Positions 8,253 through 63,334 of a stretch of 63,721 nt of DNA are shown here, one piece after another. The position numbers were made by a program, and so were the translations under genes. The stretch is from Rhina ancylostomus (taxonomy: Eukaryota). The stretch lies in assembly GCA_030265395.1 (NCBI GenBank), contig JARFYF010000104.1:61807215-61870935 (forward strand), written 5' to 3'. Within the stretch, counting starts at the first letter, position 1. Each line of letters opens with the position of its first letter. The notes below the pieces were generated by a model. The model saw nothing but the letters and a program-made list of their open reading frames with translations, was not told the DNA's origin and made no database searches.

Positions 8253-9715
8253 TTTTAAGACCACAGTTCACATTTTAAGACCCTGTTATAACTGAAACAA
8301 ATCAGTCATAATTTGAGATTTGCTTAAATGGAAGTGTGACTTAAGAATGCAGATAATAGATTTGTATAACTGAGGACCTTCATTCGAAGACAGAAGCTTT
8401 TATAATTAACCTTCTCTAATACCGTCTAGTTCATTTGACTTGGTTAATAATTAGCAAACAAATGTCCAACTGTTCCATATTTTCAGTCAATGAACTGCAA
8501 AGTACTTCATATTTCAGGAGACTCTTCACTAGGTTACCATTCAATCTTTTTTATTGTAAATTGAAAGATAGCAAACTATTTATCATTAAGAACTTGGTAC
8601 ATAATTTGCTGAGTGGAAAATAAGATTGTTTTCAATACATCCTTAGATTTTAAACCAGAGATCTGGGTAATGTTTTGCTTGGTTATGTTAAGGTGCAGCT
8701 TATGTTAAGATTGAGCAACAGAAGTGCTTTTAATCATTTAGATTTGTAAATAACAAGTCATACTTATCAAGTTGCAAAGTTATAATGTACTTTTTGGTTT
8801 CCAGGCAAGCTGTGTAACAAAGAAAACATACAATACTATAAGTATGTTTAGAGTTGAAATGCCTCCTCTAATTTGGTGGTCAAGACTATTTTTTAATTTG
8901 GCACTATAGTGCAAATCTGCAAACTGAATTAGTAGTTCCAATTCAATCTATGATGCCAAATTACAGTTAGAACAGCACTTATGTAACAGGCTTCATTTGT
9001 TGATTTAGAAATTGTATTGCTTGTAGATTGAACTACTAAAATAGAATTGCACAGGAGACCCATGTTCGTATGTCCAAACGGTGTGTACTTTTAAGCATGT
9101 ACCTCTTTCAAGTGCATGGATGCACTGATTTCTCCCATACTGCACATGAAGTAATTTTATGAGTACAACACACCTACTAAGATCAACAAGCATGAGTGAC
9201 AAAGTCTGTCACTCCACATCCATCTGAGAACCTATAAAACCAAAGTGGATGTAAAATGACTTATAGAGACCCTAAGGGACTAACTAAGTAGAAAAGGAGG
9301 TGACACTTATGACTGCCCCAACACTCAAACTCACATTGATTCAATCATGAAAGATATTTAATTCATACATTACAACACACTTCACTCAACTATGAGGAAA
9401 ATATTTTATCACAATAAGTGGTACAAGCAGGAGGGGTCTCTTCCAAGCCCAGCAGACAAATCAGTCGAAGAAGAAAGGTGTTTGTGGTTGTAGCCCCAGT
9501 TGCACAAAGTCAGTGACCGGAAATCATTGAAGATGGAGTTCATATCCAGTCAGTCCTTTCTTAATCCATCAACCCATAATTTATGTCTGATAAAATACAG
9601 ATGGTTCCAGTAGAGGAGTGGTTGCTAGCTCCATTTTGCAGATGTAGACCCAACCACTATGTCAGAGGACTCCACTTTCTTTCCAACATTGTTAGAGGAT
9701 ACCAAACATCACAGT

Positions 9716-9949
9716 GGAGACACAAGAGACTGCAGATGCTGGAATCTGGATCAACAAACAAGAAGATGGAGAAACTCAGTGGGTCAGGTAGCATCTGTGG
9801 AGGAAAGTAGAGTGTCGACATTTTGTGTCAAGACATTTCATCTGGACTGTCCAGATGAAGGGTTTCAACCCGAAACATCAACTGTCCATTTCCCTCCACA
9901 GATGCTGCCTGACCTGCTGAGGTCCTGCAGCTTCTTGTTTGTTGCCCAG
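9716..9949. mobile_element. Palindromic Penelope-derived repeat with two divergent hammerhead-like cores
   Basis: Left and right halves are imperfect reverse complements around position 9848 (TTCATCTGGAC-T-GTCCAGATGAA). Right arm: GTCCAGATGAAGGGTTTCAACCCGAAACATCAACTG. Confidence 0.75.
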
Positions 9950-11279
9950 TGTCACAGTGCTGTGCTGAAAGCTCAGATCATTGACAATCCAGCTCTGCAT
10001 GCTACTACCCTAGCGCAGAATACTGTTTTCATGATCCATTATTCCCCTAACAGCAGATTGCAAGGGCTTCTGATGGCCCAAATTGGATGTGTTTAAAATG
10101 GTCCATGGAATTTGAATGTTCTGTTTTCTCTCAGGATAACAGTACAAGGACCTCTCCCATTTTGTGAATGTTCCTACAGCAGACTATCTTTCAGTGAGCT
10201 CGGATTACTGCAGCCCACGGCAAGACACTGCAAAAAGAAATCAAACTATTACTCAGAGCTGTTTGTAGTTACATTTAACAGGCATCTACTGGCTCATCTA
10301 TTGCAAGGGAACAACCATACTCAGGTTTTTCTGCAGCCACAGTGGGAGCATTGTGTAGGTGTATTGGTGAGGTAAAAGCACTTGGTCTAACTGGACTCAG
10401 GGAATGCACAAGGGTAACTTGTGATTGATTGCAGGATAATGTCATTGGGTGGTTCTTTAAAAAAAAAAGAAAATTGAATGATATGAAATTAATTTCCAAG
10501 AGATATCAAAATCAGCAATATTTACAGTTTATATTAGGTAGAAGAACAATGGGAGCCCCTTAAAACTTTGATAATGATGATATTAAAAATAGAACTGAGG
10601 AAATGGCAGGTGTATTGAATGATTACTTTGCATGAGTATTCACAATGGAAGAAAAGGATAACATCCTGAAAATACTCATAATAGACCAGCTGGATAGTTG
10701 GTGGGTTTGTGCAGTGTGAAAGTATGGAACATCCTGGAGGTGAGTTGTGAGTGCAGCTGACTTCCTGCTTTGTTCCTGGATTTACCATTGTGTCCTGGTT
10801 ATTCTGTAATGACCTGAGCTGAGGATAAGGTACATCTCATATCCTTCCCTTTGTCTTCATGCCAACCATAGCTGCCAACCTTCACTTAAAAAAATAAGTT
10901 TAAAAAAATGCTTTAATTTTAGGTTGGTTAATCATATTTTAAAATGGAGGTTTTATTTTTAAGTTCTGTTAATAATATTATTTTTCCCAATAAGTTAATT
11001 GTTTTGCAATTATTTTAAATTATGCTTAGATACACAGACATATGGAAAAAATGAAAAGTCCTTTTAATAGCATGAGTCGCCTGAGGCTTAGTCACTTCAT
11101 TGAATGGGCATTGTGGTGAGGCCTGAAAGTTGTTGGGAGCTGCGAAGCTGCAAAAGGTTATTGTGGTCACTGAGCTAGCAGGAGTTGGCTGCAAAGTCTG
11201 GGTGAGGGCCAGCACAATCCTATCCATTAAATCAGAAACAGGGAATTGTCTAACACAAGCAAAATAAATGATGAAAAAT

Positions 11280-13508: not shown

Positions 13509-14160
13509 AGAGTCTAACTTGGAGGGGAGAGTTGAAAGGTGACAGTTGAAACAGAAAACACAGGTCTAGGATATGCTAACAGCTAGCTAGTGGATCTAAG
13601 GGAACCATCAGCCAGCTGCAGAGCACATTACAGACTGCCATGCCTGTACACTGCAAATTGGAGGTCAGGTGCACACACAGCAACCCCTTGCTGTACCCCC
13701 AGGCTTGACAGTAAAACCAGAGGTTCTCTGCAAGCTGCTGAGTTGACCAGTCGGATATACTTTGTTAATTTTGAAGCCTTCCGCAGCTGGGACACTTAGT
13801 GCAGCCCTTTTATTTTGATATTTTAATAAATTAATTGTGNNNNNNNNNNNNNNNNNNNNNNNNNNNNNNNNNNNNNNNNNNNNNNNNNNNNNNNNNNNNN
13901 NNNNNNNNNNNNNNNNNNNNNNNNNNNNNNNNNNNNNNNTAATAAATTAATTGTGGCTGTTTTAAATAAATTTATAATTTAAAAATTAAACTAAAATATT
14001 ATTTTTAATTCCTGCTTTTTTCCCCAACGGGTTATAAATGTTCAGCACCTGTGCCCATTTTGCTGCTTGTGTCCCACTACACTCTGCTGAAGGACCGTGA
14101 CAACAACATTGCGGAGGTGCAAGGCAACATAAATTTAGTTTGGCCATGTGGTGATAGCGC

Positions 14161-14294
14161 ACTGTCGACGTTTCAGTTCGACCCAAAACATTGGCAGTTC
14201 CTTTCCTCCTACAGATGCTGCTTGACCCACTGAGTTCCTCCAGGAGATTGTTTGTTGTTCCAGATTTGCAGCATCTGCAGTCTCTCGTGTCTCT
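14161..14294. mobile_element. Penelope-derived repeat, palindrome with collapsed centre
   Basis: actgtcgacgtttc (minus GAAACGTCGACAGT) joined to ...gacccaaaacattggcagttcc...acagatgctgcttgacccactgagttcctccag...gcagcatctgcagtctctcgtgtctc. Confidence 0.7.
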
Positions 14295-21469: not shown

Positions 21470-21636
21470 TTGGCTCTTTCTTTCCTTCAGCTCTTTCTTT
21501 CCAGTCCTGATGATTTCCAGTCTCAATCCAAAGAATCGACTGTCCATTTCCCTCCATTGATGCTGCCGGACCTGCTGAGTTCCTGCCGCTTTTTGTGTGT
21601 TGTCCAGATTTCCAGCATCTATAGTCTCTTGTGTCT
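21470..21636 (+). mobile_element. Penelope-derived repeat (single arm) with hammerhead remnant
   Basis: CAGTC-CTGATGA (21502-21513)...TC-GACTG (21538-21542), followed by the family tail gatgctgccggacctgctgagttcct...ccagcatctatagtctcttgtgtct. Confidence 0.7.
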
Positions 21637-23639: not shown

Positions 23640-23765
23640 TCATCAGGTCATTGCTCTGAAACATTAACTCTCTTTTTCTCTCTATAGGCACTGCTTGACC
23701 TTCTGGGTATTTATAACTTTGTTTCTCTTATTTCAGATTTCCAGCATTTGCATCAATTGGCTTTT
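23640..23765 (+). mobile_element. Older Penelope-derived repeat arm
   Basis: aggtcattgctctgaaacattaactctctttttctct...gcttgacc...tttcagatttccagcatttgca; same subfamily as 41095-41277 and 59085-59220. Confidence 0.55.
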
Positions 23766-25888: not shown

Positions 25889-27750
25889 NNNNNNNNNNNN
25901 NNNNNNNNNNNNNNNNNNNNNNNNNNNNNNNNNNNNNNNNNNNNNNNNNNNNNNNNNNNNNNNNNNNNNNNNNNNNNNNNNNNNNNNNAGCTGACATGTT
26001 GCATGAAACTGGAAACATGACAGGACAAGATTACATTTAAGCTGATGGTCAATTATAAGGCGCATTGTCTCATTGCAGTATTAAAATAACAAATTCACTT
26101 GTACCCCTTGTTCCCACCTCTCTTAGCCTCTGAAACAGGGCAGGTTGAGAGCAGATTACGGGCTTTTTACATTTTTGCAGGTCATGTGACCCAAAACCAT
26201 CTTTTGTTTTGGGGGTGTATAGGGAATAGGTTAAAGTTCACTCAAAATCATTCTCATTAAAACAATCCTACTTTACATTGGACTGGTTGAAGTTTTCCAT
26301 CTGCTTTCTCCTTTTTGCATTTACCATTGTAATGGTGCTCTTACAATGGGTACTCCCAACAGGCAATCTCTACTCATGTAATGTGAGTACAGTGAACAAT
26401 TCATATTCAATGTCCACTCATGTTCAAGTTCATCTGCAATATCAGTGGTTTACCTTTTAGTGTGAATTTTTGGATTAAAGGCTCTCACCATGTATTCCTG
26501 TCCTTTAAAGACCAATCAAACTGCCAACCTGCTTAATTTGGGCTAAAGCCAGAAATTCAGTTTTTTTACAAGATTTATAATAACTTTATGAAAACACTAA
26601 AAGAGATAGAAGAATTAGAAAATTTTTAGCCAACATATTCAGATTATAGCAAAATTAATGATCTCTGAATATTTCCCTGAACTTTTTAATTTTGCATTTA
26701 TTGATAAACATGTTTTAAGTAGTCAGATTTCACTATCACAATGGGAACAAGAAAAAGTTGCCAAAATATAATTTGGAATGAATGAATCAAGAAAAAATCC
26801 TTGAGCCAAGCCTTGTTGGGAAATTCAGACAGTTACATGTCAAACCATTGGCTTTTCTCCACATAAGTGACAGCAAGTTGGTATTTCCAGATGAACACTG
26901 AAGTCCTGAAGTTGTTGGGCTTTTGGTGATTGTGTTTAGACACTAGGTTCTTCAGGGACTCCAGTGGGGGAAAGTGAATCTGCTTCAATCCTTCAGTACC
27001 GGCACTGGGGGAGTCAGCCTGCTGAACTTCCACTTGAACTACTGTGTGTAGTTTTGTTTTTTTTAAGGGAAGCAGTGCAGCAAAGGTTATCTTGCAGTGT
27101 GGATAATGGGATTGACTTTTGAGGAAAGATCAAACAGAATAGCCCCTACTTTCAGAAGAATGAGAGTTAATCTTATTGAAACACTAATTCCATCCAATCC
27201 AATGGAAAGTAATGTGTGTAAAAGATAAATTTATTAATTAGATAATTTACTTTATTTGAATTATAAGGACTTAATTAACATGCTTTTAATAGTTTAAATT
27301 TTAGGTAGTTTAATTTATTATTACATTTATTTTTTTAATTGTTTCATTGTTTTTTAATAGTTTTTGTATGTTTCTGAATGTCAGGGCTATTCAACATTGT
27401 TCAAAGTCATTGATGGGTTTGACAGATGGTAAAAGTTAGGTGTATGACTTAGCCAGCTTCAAAGTTTTTCAGTTTTACTGTTCAGTTCTACTGACCCACC
27501 CATGTGATGGTGTTGCTTTGCTCCTTGCACCAAGTCCCATTCAGCATTACTATGCACTTCCTATTCTATGCAGGGTCACAGTTAAATAAGGTTTGAAAAT
27601 TCTCATCCTTGTTTTCAAGATATGGTGAGGCAAGTTGGGAAACATCAAATCAGTTGACCAAACTTTGGTAAAATTGTTGCTTTGACATATTTTGAAATGT
27701 TTAGTTGAAATTGCTGCATCAACCTAACATTTATTTTTTCTACACTTCAG

Positions 27751-27946
27751 GGAATCCTGGGTTTGGACCACAATGCAAAGCAATTGGGAAAGGCACCAGC
27801 AACAATCTAGTGGTTACAAGCAGTCCCATGACAGTCCAGAGAACAGGGCTTCTACCAAGCCAAGCAATCGTCCCTGGCAACCACCTTAATCGGGCAATAT
27901 GTCATCAGATGAACCCAAATCTAAACATTCCTGCTACAGATACAAG
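27751..27946 (+). CDS. GLIS3: GLIS3 internal coding exon (equivalent to mammalian exon 3)
   Basis: Encodes GNPGFGPQCKAIGKGTSNNLVVTSSPMTVQRTG...NLNIPATDTR, matching the recalled human GLIS3 segment GFGPQCKSIGKGSCNNLVVTSSPMMVQR...NLNIPPSDTR. Acceptor ttttttctacacttcAG at 27749-27750. Donor AAG|gtcttg at 27947 is phase 2, matching the next exon (AG+A = Arg). Confidence 0.9.
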
Positions 27947-30900
27947 GTCTTGTAAAGTTCTTGGAATTTTAAATTCATTGATTTAATTGACCATTTCATT
28001 TCCAATTCAAATTCTGAACTTGATAATTTAAGGTATCTAATTTTTAAAAAGTTTCACTTGCTACAGTATGCATAGAGTGAGAAAGATGGATTGATTCATC
28101 TAACTGAAAACAAGACATTTTATGCACTCACATTAAGGTTGTGTTGTAGTAAATCAGCCTGGTATTGCCTGAATATCTGTTTGTTGGATACAAATTTAAC
28201 AAGTTGCACACTTTTTTGAGAGGTTTCGCCCAAATGTTGTGAATGCAAGTAGCTCTTTCCAAATTTGGGCAACTTCATATAAAATGGTCCTATACCAAAA
28301 TTAGTCATCTTTCATCAGTTCACTCTACTATAACTATTCACCATCCAAAATGGTTGGTGTTGGAATATACTTGATTTTAAAAAGGCACGTGACCTTAGTA
28401 TTGCATCTAGATTTCATTTTCAGTTATCTGATACCTTATGTTTAGTAGTAATGTCACTGGGCATTCCAAAATCAATTTGGATTCAGAAAAAGAAAAGTTC
28501 CGACAAATGCAGATTACGGTTCACTTCAGTCACCTTTTGACCACTCTTTCTTATCCCATGATCCAAATCTTCAGGGCTTGTTAGGAATACCTGAAGAATC
28601 CTTTGGTATTTTGCCTAAACTTCAGAAGGGATAAGTACAGCATAACAGACCTACACCTGAATTCTGCTGGAACAGACTAAAGTAGAGTGGACAAGGGACT
28701 GCTTTAGTATAGACCAGATAAAATGTTTAAATCAGTTATGGACTATGCAAATTTCACCCTGTGGGTGGTGTAACTGTTAGAGACCCTGAAGATACAGATG
28801 AAGAGGACAAGGAGGAAGAAGAAAAGGTTGAAGGCAATAAGTAACCAGGATGATTACTGGGATTGAATTCCTTTCCATTTTGTTTTCAGCTGCCCATTGG
28901 CATAAGAGGTTTGTTCTAAGTTGAGCGCACCAGCTAGTCAATACAGAACTGCTGTGCTGCTGACAATAAACTGTCCCAGGTCTGAGTCTGAAAAAGAGTG
29001 AGCCCAGGAATGGCCATCCACAAGTGCAAGTTAAGTCAAATAAGCATCCTAGACATCTCTTAAATTCACCCCTAGTTATTATAAAACCATTTGTGAAGTA
29101 GATGTATCATTTATTTTTCCCCTCCTATGGGAAATACTTTATACACATCTATCTTAATTTTGCGTTATTCTGATGACACACATAAAATCTACCCAACTCT
29201 CTATTCTGCCTTCAAAGCCATTATAATTTATTTATGCAGAATTATGTAGTTTGAAATTGATATTTAACTTAAGGATAGTTTGAGATTGGTATTACTAGTC
29301 CCACACAATACATAACTTACAGTACACTTGCTTAATAAGAAGCACTGTAGTGTTTTATGAGCTGCAGCCATATGTTAGGGAAGTTTTTCAAATCATTGAA
29401 GAGAGATGTAGGTGTATGTCAGTTTGATTTAAAAGGCTCACAATGCTGTAATTGTAATGCTGTCAGTGTGGCATGAGAACACTTCTGTCATACTCAAAAC
29501 TGAAGCATAAAGTACAAAAGTGTGCATTCCAAATAGATCTTGATACAAAATGGTAATAAAAATTTATTTTATATGTATTTTGGATCTAATTGGCTCCTTA
29601 GTTAAACTATACATTTGGGCAGTTGGTTTAAATGGTATCTTATTTAAGTATCTTTAGTTTCTGCATTTTGTGCCCGTAGCTTTTTTTGAGTTGTTCACTT
29701 AGACAAGTGACAAAGATAAAGCTACCAGCAAAACAACTTCAGCTGAAGTTAGTCAATACTCAATTAACAGCAGAGGCTAGAAAATATATCAGAAGTCTTT
29801 ACCAGGTACACCAAGATTCATGTGTACTACACTGCCAATCTAATCTAATAAAGTGGTCAAAGAATTTCCTGATTTTCTTTTCCTGTACTGCAAAAAAAGA
29901 TTTAAAACTTTTGCTTTGTAATTTAAATGGTGAAAAATAGCTGTGTTACTGCATCTTTCATTTACTCAGTAAACTTTAAACATTTGAATTAGAGTAAATT
30001 ACATTTAAAATAGTGGACTGGATTTATCTCAGTAAAGCGAAACAATATTAGGGGATAGCGGTTCAATATCCTGATCCACTTTCCCTGTTTGGGGGCTTTT
30101 GGTTAATTGAGTCTAAGTCTCGAGCAAGTCCACCAAAGATAAAAGAGATAAATGAACTGAGTGCCATTGCTGTACGAAATGAATACACATCATACAACTG
30201 TATAATGTGAGCAAATCCTGAGTCTATTAGAAAACTTAGTTCGGAAAGTACAACATTAGATGGTCATCTGTGTGTGTGACAAAGCACCTTTGTAAGAGAG
30301 TCAATACCAGGGCTTTCCTACTCACAGTTTCAACCTGGAGTCACTAATGCATCTCATTCTAAAGGAGATTCAGACCTGAATCTGCAATCAAGACTACTTA
30401 TCATTATTGGCACATCTATCAATAATTTATAACTCAGCAATTCTGATGACATTTTAATTTTTAACAATATTATTAATTTGTGTTTTGAAACCAATGTAAA
30501 AATATTGTACTAAAATGTGTTCATTGTCCTTTTAAGCTGAAGCTCTCTTGTAATTTATACAAGTTCACAGGTTGGTCATAACATAACCCTAAGGACAGAA
30601 CCTCAAAGGTTAATTGTTTTCTTCCACCCCCACCCCATCCTTCTCTTTGCTGTGATTATCCATTAACAGAGTGGAAGCAAATGGTTATCTCATGGGTGAA
30701 AATAAAGGTCAACGTTTATGTATCTTGAAGTTACTTAGCAGTACAAAAACAAAACCAGGATATTGTTTTAGCTGCCTCTATGACACTTGCAATTCTAATT
30801 ATGTGATCACTGACTTAATTAATCTATGCAGGAATTTCAGTAATTTTGAAGGTAGGGAAATTTGGTTAGAGACAAACGTGCTCAAGGGCAAATTGTGGAC

Positions 30901-36500: not shown

Positions 36501-37156
36501 TCTGTCCACCAATCTCTTTTTCCAATGCAGAAAATTTGAGGCAAGTAAGTAAATTTTGCCTAACCTGAGCCTATGCTCCTTTTAAAGTATACTCCTTTTA
36601 AAAAGCTTAATATATTTATTTGGTGGAAAGTGTACGTTTTTGCAAACAGTCTTCTACACGGAAAACCATCTGAGGACTCATGCTCTGCCAGCTCTCATTA
36701 GCGTGCTTGTGACTTGATGCGTTTCATTATAAATAATACACATCCCATTTTTGAGTCATTTTTCACATCTCTAATAATACACTTGCTTAAAAATTTAGAT
36801 TGCAAGATATGATCGGTCTTTAGAATGGATAAATCTTGCTGTTTTACCATCTGTCCCAGTCCCTGTGCAAATCTAGAGGATGACACACAGTACAATGGTT
36901 AAGCTCTTTTTGTTTACTTCAAAGGAACTGAACTGGCTTTGCTTTAGGAAACTTGAGCTTCCAGGCTGTAGCAATTAGGCACCTTTCCACTGAAAAGGAA
37001 ATTGTATAATTAGGTTAGATTAGGCAACTTCAGAGCATCACTTTTCATTGAAACAGAATATTTCAAGTGACAACTGATATTTTGTCACCTGTGGAAAGGA
37101 GTTGTGACAACTTAGGTTTTATTTTCATTGTCCATTTCTTCTTTCTTTATTTTTAG

Positions 37157-38192
37157 ATCGATTACTTCAGGTGGATCACTAGGCTCAACTGCAGTAAGTT
37201 TTATAGAAAGTCAGTCAACGTTGAACGTGAAGCAAGAGTGGCCACATGGTTACCCAATCCTTCCATCACTCCCATCAAACCAAGGTTCCCAGAATGGCAG
37301 TGAACTAGGGGATGTGCTGAGTATACCACCTGGAACTGCCATGTCAAGTAACAGCACTTCAAACTCTTTACCTTCTTACCTGTTTGGGAATGAAAATAGC
37401 TCACGCAATTCTGCCCGATCTAATTCTGCTCGATCGAGAAAAAGAGGACTTTCCACCTCGCCCTTTTCAGATGGAGTTGGAATCGATCTCATTATTCGTA
37501 CATCTCCAACATCATTAGTAGCATACATCAATGGGTCCAGAGGGTCCCCGGCTAATGTTTCCCCTCAGCCTGAAGTATGTGGGCATTTTCTGGGGGTGAG
37601 AGGTAGTTGCATTCCTCAAGCCTACAATGCAACTGGTAAAGAACGAAATCTATTTACTTTTGCTGACCTTGAAGCTAGCAATGGTGTGTACCAGAGAATG
37701 CAGCAGTTGGAGCACTCTTCATTGCACCCCATGGTGATGAACAACATGGTTGTTCAACAGGGTATTTCAGTGATTGGTAACCAGCAGTATGACACATTCA
37801 AAGATGAGCAACTGGATGAATTCTCATCAGGTATGGAAATACCTGCACTGCCCCAGGGTCCTCCACCACCATATCATGCTCACCGGCATCTTATGACCCA
37901 TTCTCATTCACATGGGCAACCATCACCACAAGGGACACAGCTGGATGAGGATGGTGAACCATCAAGAATTAATGGAAAGCACTGTTGCCGATGGATAGAC
38001 TGCAGTGCAATATATGACGAGCAGGAGGAGCTTGTACGACACATTGAAAAGGCACATATAGACCAGCGTAAAGGAGAAGACTTTACTTGCTTCTGGGCTG
38101 GTTGCCCACGCAGATACAAGCCATTTAATGCTCGCTATAAACTGTTAATCCACATGAGGGTGCATTCAGGAGAAAAGCCCAACAAGTGTACG
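37157..38192 (+). CDS. GLIS3: GLIS3 large coding exon (equivalent to mammalian exon 4): N-terminal conserved region, PPxY motif, C2H2 zinc fingers 1-2
   Basis: ORF contains VKQEW, SNSLPSYLFG, RKRGLSTSPFSDGVGIDLIIRTSPTSLVAYINGSR, GPPPPYHAH and GKHCCRWIDCSAIYDEQEELVRHIEKAHIDQRKGEDFTCFWAGCPRRYKPFNARYKLLIHMRVHSGEKPNKCT. These are GLIS3-type rather than GLIS1/GLI. Polypyrimidine tract plus AG at 37155-37156; donor ACG|gtaggt at 38193 (phase 0). Confidence 0.96.
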
Positions 38193-40674
38193 GTAGGTGG
38201 CAAAACAGTGTTCTATATACTTAGTTGCTTGCAAATTAACCATTTTCTTGCCTTGAGGCATTATGTTACAACAGACTACTAATTGTATCTCACATTTGTC
38301 ATCTTTAGTTTTTGTTTCCATGTTGACTACTGAATGAAGTGTCTTCCAGTGTATAGTATCATGCTTTGTTTTACTTGCAAAGTACAGAAGAATTCTACAG
38401 TTTTAGTAAATTGCTGGATATCTCAAAGATAACAGACACCACACAATTTTTTTTATTTCGCCAAGGATTAATCACCTTCCTCCCCTAACAGATTTCTTTT
38501 GTGTAGCATGTTACAACCATGATGCCAAACCTGAATGTTCAGTTCTATTATCTCTACCACTGGTACATGAAATCATATGGTAGCCTAGTTACTAAACACA
38601 GCAAACACTTCTTGTATATTAAGCATATAAGGGGCTCAACATTATTGAATTCTTGAAAGCTAAGCTGAACAATAATACAACATAAGTAATACATGGTGCA
38701 TGGAGCAAAAGGTTTTGAATTTTAAATCCCTCACATTATTGAATCCCATATTTTAACCCTATTTTGGTAAAGAGACAGTAATCTGAAACCAGGCACTTGC
38801 ATGCAGGAATGGAAGGTGGTAGATGAAAAGCTGGAATAATGATCTGCAGAATAATTTTGTGTAATTGAAAATAACAGAACTATAAGGGATTTTTTCAAAG
38901 GAGTTCCCCTCTTGGCTACTGTTCATAAGTAGAAAGTCCATGATATATAGTTTGCATATTGAGGGTGATCTGCAAAAGGAATCCCAGCAAGGGAAAACAC
39001 TGACAACTCAATAAATGGAATATCAAATATTACTTGATCAGTTTCCTGGTGTCCTCCCAGTCAAGTGCTTGATTCTACAATATCTTTTGAACTTCACGTG
39101 CATGAGATATGTTATTAGTGTTATGGTCAATGCATTGCATTGCTTACACCACTGTTTTACCATTACTGAAGAAATGAGTCAAAAAGGTTCTGTTTTATGT
39201 TTGATCAGTAAGTGCATAAGAGTGATTTGAATCCACTGAAAATGAAGTAAAAATCATTTTGATTAATCAGTTGGAAGTTATTGAAAGGAAGAATGCAAGC
39301 AAGGGGATGGAGCATTAGAAGAAAACAACAGTACAGAAGAGCTGAAAGTCATTGTGTAACTGTGGGAGCACTATTACAATACAGTTTGGGGTAGAGGAAT
39401 CCTTCTCCAGGTCATATAATAAAAAAAATCTACAAATATCAGAAGTAATGATTGAGAAAATGCTACATACTTTTTGCAGTTGTTAGGTTTTTCAGTTCTG
39501 GAATATTCAGTGGATAGATAATGAGAAAACATAAATGAGGTGGTCAGACCTGAGAGTTTGCAAGAACTAGTCAGGTTTGGCTATCGGTTTTTTAACTGCT
39601 CTGCAATTTGTGTCCCATTTCCTGCAGATCAAGTTAGTAACTAAAATTAAAGAGATAAATGTTGGCTGCAACTACTAATTTTTGACAGGGATCAATGAAC
39701 GCACAAGAGATTTTTGTGAAAGTTGCAATAGAATTAATGTAGCTTGCCATAAAATGTGATCAATTGATTATGAAGATAACACTTGAACATGCATATTGCA
39801 GTTTCAAATTAAATCTCCAACAGATTGCCCCATCCAGGTTTAAATGTCTTTTATATTTGTCATGCAAACAGTCTTGCAGAAGATGTAGTGGACCACTGTA
39901 TTGTGTATTGCTTGAGGAATGTTGGCATGTCGTCAGTTTACTACCCATGTTATTTTTATTTCCCTTTGATTAGTAAAGGATGAAAAATCCAGATGCCACA
40001 AATATTTTCTGAACTATCAATTGTTATCTAACCAAAATACTTATTTGAAATTATTCCAGCACAGCAATGAAGAACTTCTTTAGAAAACTTATATTGCCAG
40101 AAGTGGGATGTGTGCAAGTATTTTGAATATATTGGTCAGGAAAGGAGCTTGTATCCTCTGACATTAGACATTTGAGGTTTAGTGCAGTGCAATCATCTGC
40201 CTTTGTTACCCTGATCAAGTCACAGACAGACCACATATAGAATTACCTCAAAACCACCCTAACTTCTTCAGTGGAACATTTTCCAACATAACTGAAGATG
40301 AAAGGAATTATAAACACTACCAGGAAGAGGCAATTGCTCACTCATAACCTGCTTAATGATTCTCAGTTAGAGTTTCACCCAGACAACCAAGTTTAAGCCT
40401 TCGTGATTGGTCTGATTCATCCTCGAATTTAAGAACTTAATTCCAGAAGAGAATTAAGAGTAACTACCTTTGACAATTGGGCAATTCTCAGCTGAGTCTG
40501 GTAGCAAGTATTTTTGAAAAGAAGTGTTCCATTGCTTGGTGTCACATTAGGACAAAGGAAGCTGATGATGGTTGTAAAGGACCAAGCATCAATAACCCTG
40601 GCAAATAGTTGCGAGGTTGTTGGGGCAATGAGTTAGATCCAATTCACTCCGATAATTTCATCAATGACCTTTCA

Positions 40675-41277
40675 ATAAAAAAATACTGCAGATGCTGGAA
40701 CTCTGAAGTATAACAGAATACAGTAAAGCTCTGATAATCCATCACTGTTGGGACTATGGTAGTGCCAGATTAGCAGATTTTCCAGACCATTGGATAGTAC
40801 TCCAATTAATTCCCAAACACTCTTTCATTTCATGTTTTTCTTTTACATTTTGTATGGGTGTAATAATATAAAAACTAGTGAACTTGATGAATATAAAGGA
40901 AGTGAGAAATATACAAGCACTCTGGACCCTGGTTCCAGCCACAAACCTACTTATGTTTCTGACACTTGGTTCTCCTGACCCCAACCCCAGCTCCAGCTGC
41001 ACACGTGGTCTACAGTGTGGACCCTGGCCCTGGCCACACTCCAGACTTAGGACTTCTGAACAATCAGATGCTAGATTACCAGAGTTCTGGTGTGTATTGG
41101 AAATACACAGCAGATTGAGCAGCATTTTGAAATGAGAAAAAGAGTTAACATTTCAGGTCAATGACACTTCATCAAGACAATTTCTGTTGAAATGTCATCA
41201 ACTTGAAAATGTTAACTTTTTCTCTTTCCATTGTTGCTGCCTGTTGAGTGTTTCTAACGTTTTCTGATTTATTTCTT
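40675..41277. mobile_element. Palindromic Penelope-derived repeat (older subfamily), interrupted by a MITE
   Basis: aaatactgcagatgctggaactctgaagtataacagaa...[insert]...ggaaatacacagcag...gagttaacatttcaggtcaatgacacttcatcaagac, then the mirror arm ttctgttgaaatgtcatcaacttgaaaatgttaact...tgctgcctg. Confidence 0.65.
40721..41094. mobile_element. Tigger/pogo-like (Tc1-mariner) MITE
   Basis: TA|CAGTAAAGCTCTGATAATCCATCA at left; degenerate inverted end TGCTAGATTACCAGAGTTCTGGTGTG|TA at right; TA on both flanks. Confidence 0.6.
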
Positions 41278-45278: not shown

Positions 45279-45420
45279 AACAACAAACAATCTGCTGGAA
45301 AAACTCAGCAGGTCAAACAGCATCTGTAGGAGCAAAGGAATTCCTGCTGTTCGACCTGCTGAGTTCTTCCAGCAGTTTGTTTGTTGCTCTAGATTCCAGC
45401 ATCTGCATTCTCTTGCATCT
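45279..45420. mobile_element. Palindromic Penelope-derived repeat with centre (hammerhead cores) deleted
   Basis: caacaaacaatctgctggaaaaactcagcaggtcaaacagca ... GGAATTCC ... tgctgttcgacctgctgagttcttccagcagtttgtttgttg. Confidence 0.8.
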
Positions 45421-46514
45421 TCAATGTAATCTGATAAAATAAGACAAAAAGTTGAACAAATCCTGAGAAAATGGGTAAATGATATAAGGGCAAATCAAGT
45501 TTTAGTTTGATGACACATCAGGTATTTAACAGTTCACAGGTATATTGTGTCATTCTCACAGCAGCATAAACCACCATCACATTTTTTTCTTTCTTCATCA
45601 ATTCTTTGATTGTGAATAAATCTAACTGCCAATTCACTCATTTTACACTTTACTGGATACATTTGTCTCACTTTTATACTTCTTATGATCAATTACATAA
45701 AAACAAGTTTTAGTTAACACATTCTAGATAGTGTAGGTGTTTAAGTCAGAGTTGTGTTTTAAAATACTTAATGCACAATAGAGCTGAACTTTAATATGGC
45801 AGGTAATATGGATTTGGATTAGGGGTGGGGAGGGTTTAAAATCCATGAAGTTGTCTATATGTTGAGAAGCTGCACCGACCTGCTAAATTCTGCATTTGAC
45901 TCCAACGCATTAAGCTACCTGCCTGCAACCCCTTAGGAAAAGCTGGTTTTGATTTTCATGTGCTGATTGCTTAGTTCTAGCAATTTTGATATGCAGCTTT
46001 TACCTTATTATTATGTCCAAAGCTTCCCCAAGCTTCCTGAAGCTCACTAAGGAAACCAAAGTGATGGGGCTGAAGACTTCTCAGCCAAAGATTTCAACAC
46101 TCTGCATTCATAGCTTCTTTCTCACCTGCTGAAGGAAAGGGTTTATTCACAGTACTTTAGCTGAAAAGATATTTTGTACAAGAAGTTAGGTTGCTTTGTG
46201 TCCTTTAATATTTTGCCCACCATATGAGAATGGTTGTCACTTGTGCTGCCTTGGATTGAACATCAGATGAGGAACCTGACTACCAGAAAAAGCCATACCA
46301 TCTGTTGTAGCCTGTTGTTACAGAGCTGCTACTGCACCATGCAGAGGAGGCCAGCAGAAGATTTTATCTACTTGAAGACATTATCACTGCGGAAGGTTTA
46401 TGAGTAAAAGGCTGAGATTCCCTAACATGCCTGAATTCCAGTTCTTTAGGAGGGTTACGATGTCATCAAAAGAGGCATCAAAGATTTGCTCTCTCCCAGA
46501 AGAAGACTTGGTTC

Positions 46515-46607
46515 TGAAACAGAAACAGAAATATTAGAAGAACTTAGCATCTGTAGAAAGAGAAACCAGTTAATGCTTTGGGGCAGGAGACCATCCTTAG
46601 AACTGGT
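46515..46607 (-). mobile_element. Short Penelope-derived repeat remnant
   Basis: aaacagaaatattagaagaacttagcatctgtagaaagagaaaccagttaatgctttggggcaggagaccatccttagaactgg. Confidence 0.45.
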
Positions 46608-47877: not shown

Positions 47878-47952
47878 GGTGAAGAGCTTTGATTATAAAT
47901 CATTGACTTGAAACATTAATGCTGCTTTACACCCCACATACGCTGCCTGACT
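47878..47952 (+). mobile_element. Penelope-derived repeat remnant, truncated by the adjacent LINE
   Basis: tcattgacttgaaacattaatgctgctttacaccccacatacgctgcctgac. Confidence 0.45.
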
Positions 47953-48660
47953 TCAAGTTCAAGTTTAATGTCATGCGTATGCATACACAGGTCAGTTCAA
48001 GAACCCGATGGCAGTGGGGAAGCAGCTGTTGTTGAACCTTGAGGTGTAGTTTTCTTGTTCCTGTACCTCCTACCTGATGGCAGCAATGAGAAGAGGGCAT
48101 GGCCCAAATGGTGCGGTCCTTAATGATGGATGATACCTTCTAGAGACATTGCCTCTTGTAGATGTCCTTGATGGTGGGGAGAACTGTATCCGGTCACTAT
48201 GGAATTGGCTGAGTCTACCACTCTCTGTAGCTTCTTGCATTCCTGTGCATGGGAGTTTCCATGCCAGGCTGTGAGGCAGCCAGTCAGAATGCTTTCCACT
48301 GTAGATCTGTAGAAGTTTGTCAGTGTCTTTGATGACATGCCGAATCTCCTTAAACTTCTAAGAAAGTAGAGATGCTGGTGTGCCTTCTTCATGATTGCAT
48401 CTATATGCAGGGCCGAGGATAGATCCTCCGAGCTGTCAGAAGCCAAGAAATTGAAGCTGTTCACCCCTTCCACCACAGACCCTTTAATGAGGACAGGTGT
48501 GTGTTCACCTGACTTCCCCTTCCTGAAGTCCACAATCAGTTATTTGGTTTTGCTGACATTAAGCATAAGGTGGTTGTTGTGACACACTGAATAGTTGACC
48601 TATATCGCTCCTGTACACCCTGTCATCACCATTCATGATTCTGCCATTATCAGCAAATTT
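47953..48660 (-). mobile_element. Rex1/Babar LINE 3' portion
   Basis: VDFRKGKSGEHTPVLIKGSVVEGVNSFNFL...KKAHQHLYFLRSLRRFGMSSKTLTNFYRSTVESILTGCLTAWHGNSHAQECKKLQRVVDSANSI. Confidence 0.92.
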
Positions 48661-58839: not shown

Positions 58840-59222
58840 TACATTTTCAGCATTCAGTTTTTCCCTCTCTCCTCTGCTCCTTCATTCATCTGCTCCTTTG
58901 TGCACCCCTTCCAGACATTAGCTCTTGCTATTCACCAGTATTTACCACCCTCTACCCAACCCCGCCACAACTTTGTCATCCAATCTCTCCTGGTTCCCAC
59001 TGTGTCACAGAGCCTTTCTTTTATTCTCTCTTCCCCTTATCTCTCCCTTTGCAACATAAAGCTTGCTTTATTTTTAACTATTTCCCATTCTGATGAGGTG
59101 TTTTTGATCTGAAATGTTGACTCTGCTTCTCTTTCCATTAACATTGCTAGATCTGCTGTATATTTTCAGCATTTTCTGTTTTCATTTCAGATTTCACCAT
59201 CTACAGTATTTGTTTTTGGGTT
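58840..59222 (+). mobile_element. Penelope pseudo-LTR-like remnant with hammerhead core
   Basis: Pyrimidine-rich tract, then CTGATGA (59090-59096) ggtgtttttgatct GAAA (59111-59114) tgttgactct..., and tail cagcattttctgttttcatttcagattt...catctacagtattt. Confidence 0.6.
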
Positions 59223-63070: not shown

Positions 63071-63170
63071 NNNNNNNNNNNNNNNNNNNNNNNNNNNNNN
63101 NNNNNNNNNNNNNNNNNNNNNNNNNNNNNNNNNNNNNNNNNNNNNNNNNNNNNNNNNNNNNNNNNNNNNN

Positions 63171-63325
63171 AACGGGTCAGGCAGCACCTGTGGATGGAAA
63201 TTGATAGTCAATGTTTTGTCTTGATGAACTGATGAAGGGTCTCGACCAGAAATGTCAACTGTCCGTTTCCTTCCATAGATGCTACCTGACCCTCTGAGTT
63301 CCTCAAGCAATTTGTTTGTTGCTCA
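63171..63325. mobile_element. Palindromic Penelope-derived repeat with the best-preserved hammerhead core
   Basis: gggtcaggcagcacctgtggatggaaattgatagtcaatgtttt ... CTGATGA (63229-63235) AGGGTCTCGACCA GAAA (63249-63252) TGTCAACTGTCC...gatgctacctgaccc. Confidence 0.75.
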
Positions 63326-63334
63326 AAAATATTA

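Follow-up and report, generated by a model that had tools for sequence, protein, structure and literature searches.

A decayed head-to-head insertion of two Penelope-type pseudo-LTR ends in a GLIS3 intron of the ray Rhina ancylostomus, and its relatives across the genome

For Penelope-like elements (PLEs) that carry a GIY-YIG endonuclease (EN+), the published layout comprises an inverted, 5'-truncated pseudo-LTR (pLTR), a one-sided tail of 30-40 bp and a target-site duplication (TSD) (PMC3846280, PMC8557442, PMC8969392), and the origin of the tandem and inverted ends of PLEs is an acknowledged open question (PMC8557442, PMC11167929). The Adineta elements Pen2a, Pen2 and Pen3a are described with an inverted pLTR, a tail at one end and one TSD (PMC3846280; scheme in PMC8557442), and a TATA box paired with an Inr-like motif is described in Adineta pLTRs (PMC3846280). 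The Poseidon element PAc of Anolis carolinensis has a hammerhead in its pLTR, and its insertion was reconstituted in vitro: both strands were cut and extended, two start sites bracketed the tail with no strand preference between them, uncleaved RNA was an insertion substrate and hammerhead cleavage was not needed (PMC11167929). Minimal hammerheads (min-HHRs) of metazoan PLE pLTRs show a CUGANGA core, an extra nucleotide after A9, a G10.1-C11.1 pair, a palindromic 15.2/16.2 segment and a short helix I, and they occur mostly in solitary truncated copies; in Schistosoma, dual min-HHRs lie 100-700 bp apart on opposite strands (PMC4209133). Finally, animal non-LTR retrozymes are non-coding, related to pLTRs and equipped with type I hammerheads (bioRxiv 10.64898/2026.07.22.740005; PMC7229834), and they are reported as head-to-tail tandems with intact hammerheads in consecutive units (bioRxiv 10.64898/2026.07.22.740005).

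The window analysed here, the whole stretch of 63,721 nucleotides from Rhina ancylostomus, contains at 9716-9949 an element that a sequence-only reading had described as a head-to-head inverted repeat of about 230 bp. This description was borne out, since two arms of 96 nt each (9752-9847 and 9849-9944) are 77% complementary and a contig from an independent run (X19) spans the centre from 9777 to 9878 with 0 differences, which rules out an assembly artefact for this element. The long hairpin proposed for the GLIS3 pre-mRNA is also predicted for 9716-9949 by RNA folding (-117.7 kcal/mol, z -10.1, matched by 0 of 200 shuffles). The element is asymmetric, its left arm reaching about 35 nt further, to 9716. 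This left arm (9716-9848, minus strand; profile positions 1-132, 132 bits) is a pLTR 3' end of subfamily 4 with the CAGATGA core and extends, by profile and subfamily assignment, from position +1 (AGTCC at 9848) through a tail of about 35 nt that ends at 9716. The right arm (9849-9947, plus strand; profile positions 2-100, 95 bits) starts at +2 and has no tail; from the inverted-repeat and profile comparison, the one-sided tail occupies approximately 9716-9751 on the minus strand. Matches of thousands of contigs stop at 9715-9718, the outer end of the tail. An 8-bp direct repeat, TCACAGTG, is present on both sides of the element as the left (9709-9716) and right (9952-9959) copy of a TSD, both on the plus strand, and 10 of 14 positions match when the left copy is extended to 9703. 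No ORF was found beside this copy, which as an individual is ordinary decayed repeat DNA.

Scanning the window with six subfamily profiles at a threshold of at least 18 bits gave 10 insertions, against 0 matches of at least 8 bits in the reversed sequence that served as control, in agreement with the about ten elements counted before. At least five of them had been thought palindromic, but the classifier finds only four of the 10 head to head (starting at 9716, 41095, 45279 and 63170). Two of these pairs are by profile the one at 45279-45420, which lacks the hammerhead region and has arms starting at about +26/+32 and at +56, and the one at 63170-63329, which belongs to the subfamily 4 cluster and lost its left end in an N gap (63071-63170). 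The old subfamily 6 pair at 41095-41270 (33 and 19 bits) was missing from the earlier list of relatives; the same stretch also drew a chance Rfam match to mir-305. At 14156-14293 (plus strand), which corresponds to the relative listed at 14161, a tailed arm (14176-14293) is joined at a TCGA palindrome to an inverted stub of only 27 nt (3.2 bits). Single arms correspond to the relatives listed at 21470, 23640, 46515 and 47878, and to the one now placed at 59088. They comprise a tailed arm of the subfamily 4 cluster, identified by profile, whose CTGATGA core is retained and whose helix II is broken by an insertion (21504-21636, plus), an old arm of subfamily 6 (23646-23752, plus, 39 bits), two weak old arms (46512-46603, minus, 18.1 bits; 47890-47953, plus, 18.6 bits) and an old tailed arm of subfamily 6 (59088-59207, plus, 49 bits) with a pyrimidine-rich stretch upstream of it at 58840-59087. 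The relative listed at 40675 is reduced to a weak tail-only fragment (40683-40720, minus; 12.8 bits, and 10.3 bits with the other profile scan).

Loci were also chosen by an exact 34-nt core, a choice that is blind to palindromy. These loci often run upstream into a common pyrimidine-rich region and then into a reading frame of the GIY-YIG type, with the GIY-YIG motifs 500-560 nt upstream of the core in pattern-anchored arms and the arm about 420-580 nt downstream of the domain. A first look at the genome yielded 18,218 candidates for the GIY-YIG domain, and an arm on the same strand follows downstream at 12 of 30 EN loci, the other 18 all being gapped (N) or at a contig end. Pfam returned GIY-YIG (PF01541) as the sole match, with 14.6, 18.5 and 18.6 bits under a cut-off of 22.6. 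A Cys-rich linker precedes EN in four loci (L095, L093, L102 and L106), and upstream of EN in L106 lies a fragment that we take to be RT-like from its motifs; a Pfam search with this fragment gave no match. Neither an intact full-length parent nor a full-length ORF was recovered, and N gaps often interrupt the young copies. Judged from these sequences, the arm represents the pLTR 3' end of an EN+ (GIY-YIG) PLE that is abundant in the genome, because the GIY-YIG frame lies upstream in cis. The Penelope pLTR origin put forward earlier is supported by this linkage, whereas the remark that no RT/GIY-YIG ORF accompanies such elements holds for the copy at 9716-9949 but not elsewhere in the genome, where the same arm follows a GIY-YIG domain. 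A Zn-finger-like or Cys-rich motif between RT and EN is given as a trait of Neptune and Nematis (PMC8557442), and the parent clade is probably Neptune. In subfamilies 3 and 4, an open frame that starts with MLPDLLSS at about +52 of the arm consensus continues across the arm into the tail; this could be where the ORF of the parent begins. A frame opened by the ATG within the core, by contrast, ends after about 21 codons. Four contigs assembled from presumed RNA runs of relatives match an EN-pLTR copy and are uninformative on starts, cleavage, strand and editing.

The abundance of the family was estimated from 100 evenly spaced 10-kb stretches on 11 large contigs (858 kb without N). This sample contains 191 arms in 169 insertions, namely 138 single arms, 30 head-to-head pairs and 1 tail-to-tail pair; a stricter first pass of the same sample (126 arms) gave 98 singles and 14 pairs. 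The density of about 200 insertions and 35 palindromes per Mb corresponds, scaled up roughly, to 370,000 insertions and 66,000 palindromes genome-wide, and copies diverge by 11-14% from their consensus. Copies with a perfect 34-nt core (L031-L090) often adjoin N gaps, which makes it probable that the assembly under-represents the youngest and most perfect palindromes; the share of palindromes counted here is thus a minimum.

Clustering of 364 arms resolved six subfamilies, which differ in the state of the hammerhead motif. The composite arm that had been pieced together from several copies is real, as it equals the consensus of subfamily 3 (CUGAUGA) and its 34-nt core has 163 exact copies in the genome; the element at 9716-9949, in contrast, reads CAGATGA and not CTGATGA on both arms. 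Subfamilies 5 (CUGAAGA, with GUU) and 6 (U-A in place of C-G in helix I) keep the core, and the consensus sequences of subfamilies 3, 5 and 6 all show CUGANGA...GAAA...UH. In subfamily 4, which includes our element, 96 of 134 arms carry CAGAUGA, in a set enriched by the queries; the CAGATGA state occurs in 41 exact genomic copies, and its A is carried by 17 of 61 anchored random arms. The consensus core of subfamilies 1 and 2 is CUGAUGC. This CUGAUGC-A core, which can be read as A9C or as a C inserted before A9, is widely amplified (examples at L183:7663-7702, L021:2500-2539 and L264:1579-1621).

U4 is a conserved position of the hammerhead core. A U4C exchange much reduces activity in vitro (PMC3088659), and published data on the activity of a U4A hammerhead were not found. 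In the right arm, the remnant at 9849-9882 (plus strand, from sequence and alignment) has the CAGAUGA (U4A) core together with an intact helix II (GGGU/ACCC) and GAAA; its helix III palindrome ACGU is now ACAU and the innermost helix I pair is a C-A mismatch. In the left arm, the remnant at 9814-9848 (minus strand, from profile and alignment) also shows the CAGAUGA core, and here the first helix II pair is broken and G12 is changed to A. Both fail the minimal-hammerhead descriptor, which gave 0 matches in the whole window; the Rfam scan of the window returned chance hairpin matches alone and no hammerhead family, and a loose hammerhead pattern matched once, outside any element, against 0.34 matches expected. 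In the window, the scan for hammerheads that had been suggested as a check was thus negative, and an intact hammerhead is preserved in none of its copies. The minimal type I layout claimed for the element is supported at the level of the consensus and lost in this copy, and what either strand carries are remnants of a ribozyme core, both with U4A and further breaks. In the 858 kb with 191 arms, the descriptor matched 3 canonical and 3 variant hammerheads. Pairing in helices I and II was 92.2% among 16 hand-picked copies (8 of 500 shuffles), while covariation is modest: there is one clear two-sided change, the helix I C-G to U-A exchange of subfamily 6, and the count of two-sided changes was reached in 111 of 500 shuffles. 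Moreover, the long hairpin of an idealised palindrome (about -210 kcal/mol) far exceeds the hammerhead fold, hence the outward-facing pairs are not expected to aid cleavage.

The outer ends of the palindromes point to single insertion events. Among 111 pooled palindromes, mostly selected by three palindromic queries and including one duplicate, 92 combine one tailed with one tail-less arm, 1 has no tail, 8 have an eroded arm, and 10 are tailed on both arms, which counts against a one-tail model. The unselected sample shows the combination of one tailed and one tail-less arm in 10 of 14 pairs, and the 3' ends of arms are bimodal at about 96-105 and 121-135. Of the 86 palindromes that combine a tailed with a tail-less arm and have flanks free of N, 54 reach a TSD score of at least 8 (53 of 85 without the duplicate), against 1.3% of 400 mismatched pairs, and most of these TSDs are 11-15 bp long. 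Single arms have the same ends as the palindromes and show TSDs in 15 of 48 cases (null 0.3%). The doubt that such copies are only random truncations is refuted by boundaries that are sharply non-random, which is explained by the parent element's own copying. Inverted arms are also found beside EN-bearing long copies. We consider it quite probable that 9716-9949 is a decayed insertion of two pLTR 3' ends placed head to head within one TSD, which was assembled at insertion rather than copied from a palindromic master.

Such an insertion would most likely arise as follows. The endonuclease of the parent would cut both target strands 11-15 nt apart, and each free end would prime reverse transcription in the element RNA, one at an outer site, giving the tailed arm, and the other about 35 nt further inward, giving the tail-less arm. 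If the template is the pLTR copy at the start of the RNA, both cDNAs would run off its 5' end at +1, i.e. at the start of helix I; if it is the downstream pLTR copy, both would extend further and break off at random. The two cDNA ends would then be joined by end-joining repair, leaving varied centres with microhomology or filler. The hammerhead would be inherited cargo, its RNA copied in the uncleaved state, in copies that are now dead. Cutting and extension of both strands from two start sites that bracket the tail is what PAc does in vitro; as no strand preference between these sites was seen there, the PAc result alone leaves the one-tail rule unexplained (PMC11167929).

The inner ends bear on the template. 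Of 94 strong unselected arms, 52 start within -8 to +8 of +1, the A of AGTCC. Another 4 start close to the cleavage site (after +32), in the range from +25 to +40, and 23 reach upstream past -25. In 31 random copies, the match to the consensus is 0.74-0.87 at +2 to +5, drops to 0.58 at +1 and reaches background by -4. Inner ends are thus concentrated where hammerhead helix I begins and not at the cleavage site, from which it follows that the copied RNA was not a hammerhead cleavage product, in agreement with the uncleaved RNA used as substrate by PAc (PMC11167929). A TATA-like A/T-rich box is located around -30 in all 5 long copies of subfamily 5 and at -30/-29 in 19 of 31 copies of subfamily 3; it is weaker in subfamily 4 (6 of 17 at -30/-29), subfamily 2 (1 of 5) and subfamily 6 (3 of 11). 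Clean TATATAT or TATAAAT words stand 29-32 nt above +1 in five subfamily 5 loci (L122, L130, L179, L184 and L242). The position itself lies within TCAGTC or CCAGTC, presumably an initiator-like word, and +1 may well be a transcription start. A cap-G test was mixed, since 13 of 23 bases at -1 are C and 7 of the 10 non-C bases are G, and non-A bases at +1 are T in seven cases, G in three and C in one; a cap-derived G at arm ends is weakly indicated.

Furthermore, the two arms of a pair tend to agree in length. Of 25 unselected pairs, 22 are short/short, 2 long/long and 1 mixed, and among pairs with a long member, a set of 11 put together by hand without the unverified L105 and L112, 8 have a long partner, with p about 0.001 against the 23 of 94. 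Both arms may stem from one RNA. With the long profile, most inverted arms next to long EN copies are seen to start between -26 and -322. An earlier impression that these arms invariably begin at +1 was rejected as an effect of the arm-only profile. Tentatively, and with some reserve, we suggest that the stubs could represent a genome-wide fossil record of Penelope integration, in which a single protein complex would cleave both strands and make two copies of one RNA end, using two start sites, about half of all products being strong-stop copies off a capped 5' end at helix I. If this is true, the ribozyme lies right where the transcript begins and is not needed for the spread of the elements, because the CAGAUGA and CUGAUGC subfamilies reached high copy numbers.

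It is rather unlikely that +1 was set differently, either by RNA processing at a 3' splice site abutting helix I or by self-priming, with a fold-back or antisense template producing the mirror arm. The bases at +1 can indeed also be read as a 3' splice site, with a polypyrimidine tract and CAG immediately upstream of the core, the end of an intron in D. virilis maps to helix I (PMC4209133; splice site also in PMC2377424), and Arkhipova 2013 proposed self-priming for head-to-head PLE junctions (PMC3846280). However, the AG is retained in the arms (of 31 random copies, 81% have G at +2 and 58% have A at +1), and the arms lack a constant exon upstream. Nor does the inverted arm of long insertions mirror its neighbour, for example -196 beside about -715 (L094) or -85 beside a much longer copy (L108), which argues against a simple fold-back.

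A second alternative takes the single arm as the replicating unit, i.e. a short, SINE-like RNA transcribed from +1 by an internal promoter and mobilised in trans, with the palindromes as twin-primed by-products. The start of most arms at +1, the TSDs of single arms, the internal promoter of the D. virilis Penelope (PMC2377424) and the scarcity of long copies in subfamily 1 (1 long and 12 short in the random sample) would fit such a unit. On the other hand, the TATA-like box lies outside the arm, and the upstream pLTR is present in copies of subfamilies 1-5, with upstream-sharing copies in subfamily 6 as well; every subfamily thus has copies with upstream sequence and an arm-only lineage was not found, which makes this explanation very unlikely.

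The reading of the palindrome as a non-autonomous unit, similar to a retrozyme or MITE, whose hairpin RNA is re-inserted whole by the Penelope protein, had been offered by the sequence-only reading next to extreme truncation of inverted pLTRs. Sharp outer boundaries, one TSD around the whole and the sheer density of palindromes would be expected from such a unit, and so would a recurring centre. Centre analysis was limited to the 46 of 110 pairs with both cores anchored. Spacing between arms ranges from -23 to +15, with one pair at 312, and a join at -6 recurs in 14 and at -5 in 7 of the 46, AGGACT being seen 6 times. This recurrence is compatible with a join at 2-nt microhomology and partly reflects the queries, which have such centres themselves; given the recurring centre, there may be a minor palindromic master. 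Nevertheless, 36 of 45 centres are distinct, and the -6 join is found in both orientations relative to the tail, in small numbers. The consensus sequences of tailed and tail-less arms differ only at CpG sites and at a single base within a (TG)n stretch, identity outside CpG sites is equal among tailed arms, among tail-less arms and between both (0.881, 0.881 and 0.880, n=28; 0.804, 0.824 and 0.813, n=30, in a second set), and no left- or right-specific arm consensus was found in the palindromes. From a palindromic master one would expect a constant centre and bases specific to each side, and neither was observed, which favours de novo insertions. Palindromes furthermore occur in 5 of 6 subfamilies beside the 138 single arms (against 30 pairs), and longer inverted pairs form a continuum with them. 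Published animal retrozymes are head-to-tail tandems (bioRxiv 10.64898/2026.07.22.740005), while no tandem arm pairs exist among the 126 arms of the stricter random-sample pass and the sole apparent tandem (L048/L049) straddles an N gap. A palindromic unit is highly improbable on this evidence. Because of their TSDs, the one-sided tail, the varied centres and the missing side-specific consensus, the palindromes look like independent twin-primed insertions rather than a retrozyme unit, and of the two alternatives it is the truncation one that is supported.

The location in a GLIS3 intron was correctly recognised. The host gene on the plus strand is GLIS3 (best named match Mobula birostris GLIS3-like, 96%), with protein matches to a coding exon at 27750-27950 (plus, with an approximate end; P0001 residues 132 to about 198) and to the large zinc-finger exon at 37155-38237 (plus). 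The preceding coding exon lies at G000:C104:61725574-61725966, about 82 kb before the window, so 9716-9949 is placed within an intron upstream of the 27750 exon. No empty site for the element was seen in the related DNA runs searched. A relative's contig (runs X21 and X23; window 9200-9737), with about 7% flank differences, enters the element by 22 nt, below the bridging rule of 31 nt, and because it reaches inside there is a weak hint that the insertion predates the split from that relative. That this copy was co-opted as a structured or catalytic intronic RNA regulating GLIS3 has hardly any probability in spite of its intronic position, strong predicted hairpin and possibly shared insertion, since its arms are just 77% complementary, identity within the element is about that between elements (0.802 vs 0.795), hence no sign of hairpin upkeep, both ribozyme cores are broken and tens of thousands of equivalents exist elsewhere in the genome. 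The idea of a new ribozyme element or of a GLIS3 regulator does not hold for this decayed repeat; the finding is real, Penelope-derived and dead, and not a new self-propagating ribozyme element.

Compared to the systems introduced above, the ray insertions resemble Pen2a, Pen2 and Pen3a in the inverted pLTR, the tail at one end and the one TSD, and Adineta pLTRs in the TATA and Inr-like motifs. They deviate in that the two arms are as a rule shortened to about 100-135 nt and the palindrome alone makes up the insertion, in TSDs of 11-15 bp instead of 8-10 bp (PMC3846280), and in about 200 insertions per Mb with inner ends concentrated at one site. With PAc they share the hammerhead in the pLTR, whereas the ray family has the Cys-rich RT-EN linker of Neptune and Nematis and no open frame after the ATG of the core; in the accessible text on PAc, neither palindromic stub products nor a one-tail rule are described (PMC11167929). 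All the min-HHR features listed above recur in the ray family (PMC4209133), but subfamily 4 with U4A and subfamilies 1 and 2 with CUGAUGC depart from the core, and the paired motifs are mere tens of bases apart, unlike those of Schistosoma. The animal retrozymes are alike in being non-coding and pLTR-related with a type I hammerhead, whereas ray copies are head to head or single, their motifs are broken and nothing points to replication as a unit. In a literature search that covered subscription papers and Repbase/Dfam thinly, the ray stubs, the pile-up at +1, the paired arm lengths and the altered-core subfamilies were not found described, and some of them may be on record. Dimeric PLE hammerheads were reportedly treated by Lunse et al. 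in 2017. The presence of 'palindromic Penelope' repeats in Repbase found no confirmation in PMC5753468, where UCON13 is listed as Penelope and 'palindrom' does not occur.

The value of the finding is moderate and lies in the footprint of PLE integration, as the regular ends of the stubs likely record how this class copies itself. With their constant inner end, the tail on one side, TSDs of 11-15 bp and paired lengths, the tens of thousands of minimal insertions per genome yield numerical predictions for the in vitro system already in use, and they are a natural test of whether hammerhead cleavage matters. Two further loci deserve mention. A 10-kb stretch of the random sample (L192, G000:C94:10000001-10010000) contains a local cluster of at least 3 palindromes and several single arms, and L043:1096-1637 is a near-symmetric palindrome of 547 bp whose arms extend to -165 and -151 and which bridges the short stubs and the long inverted insertions.
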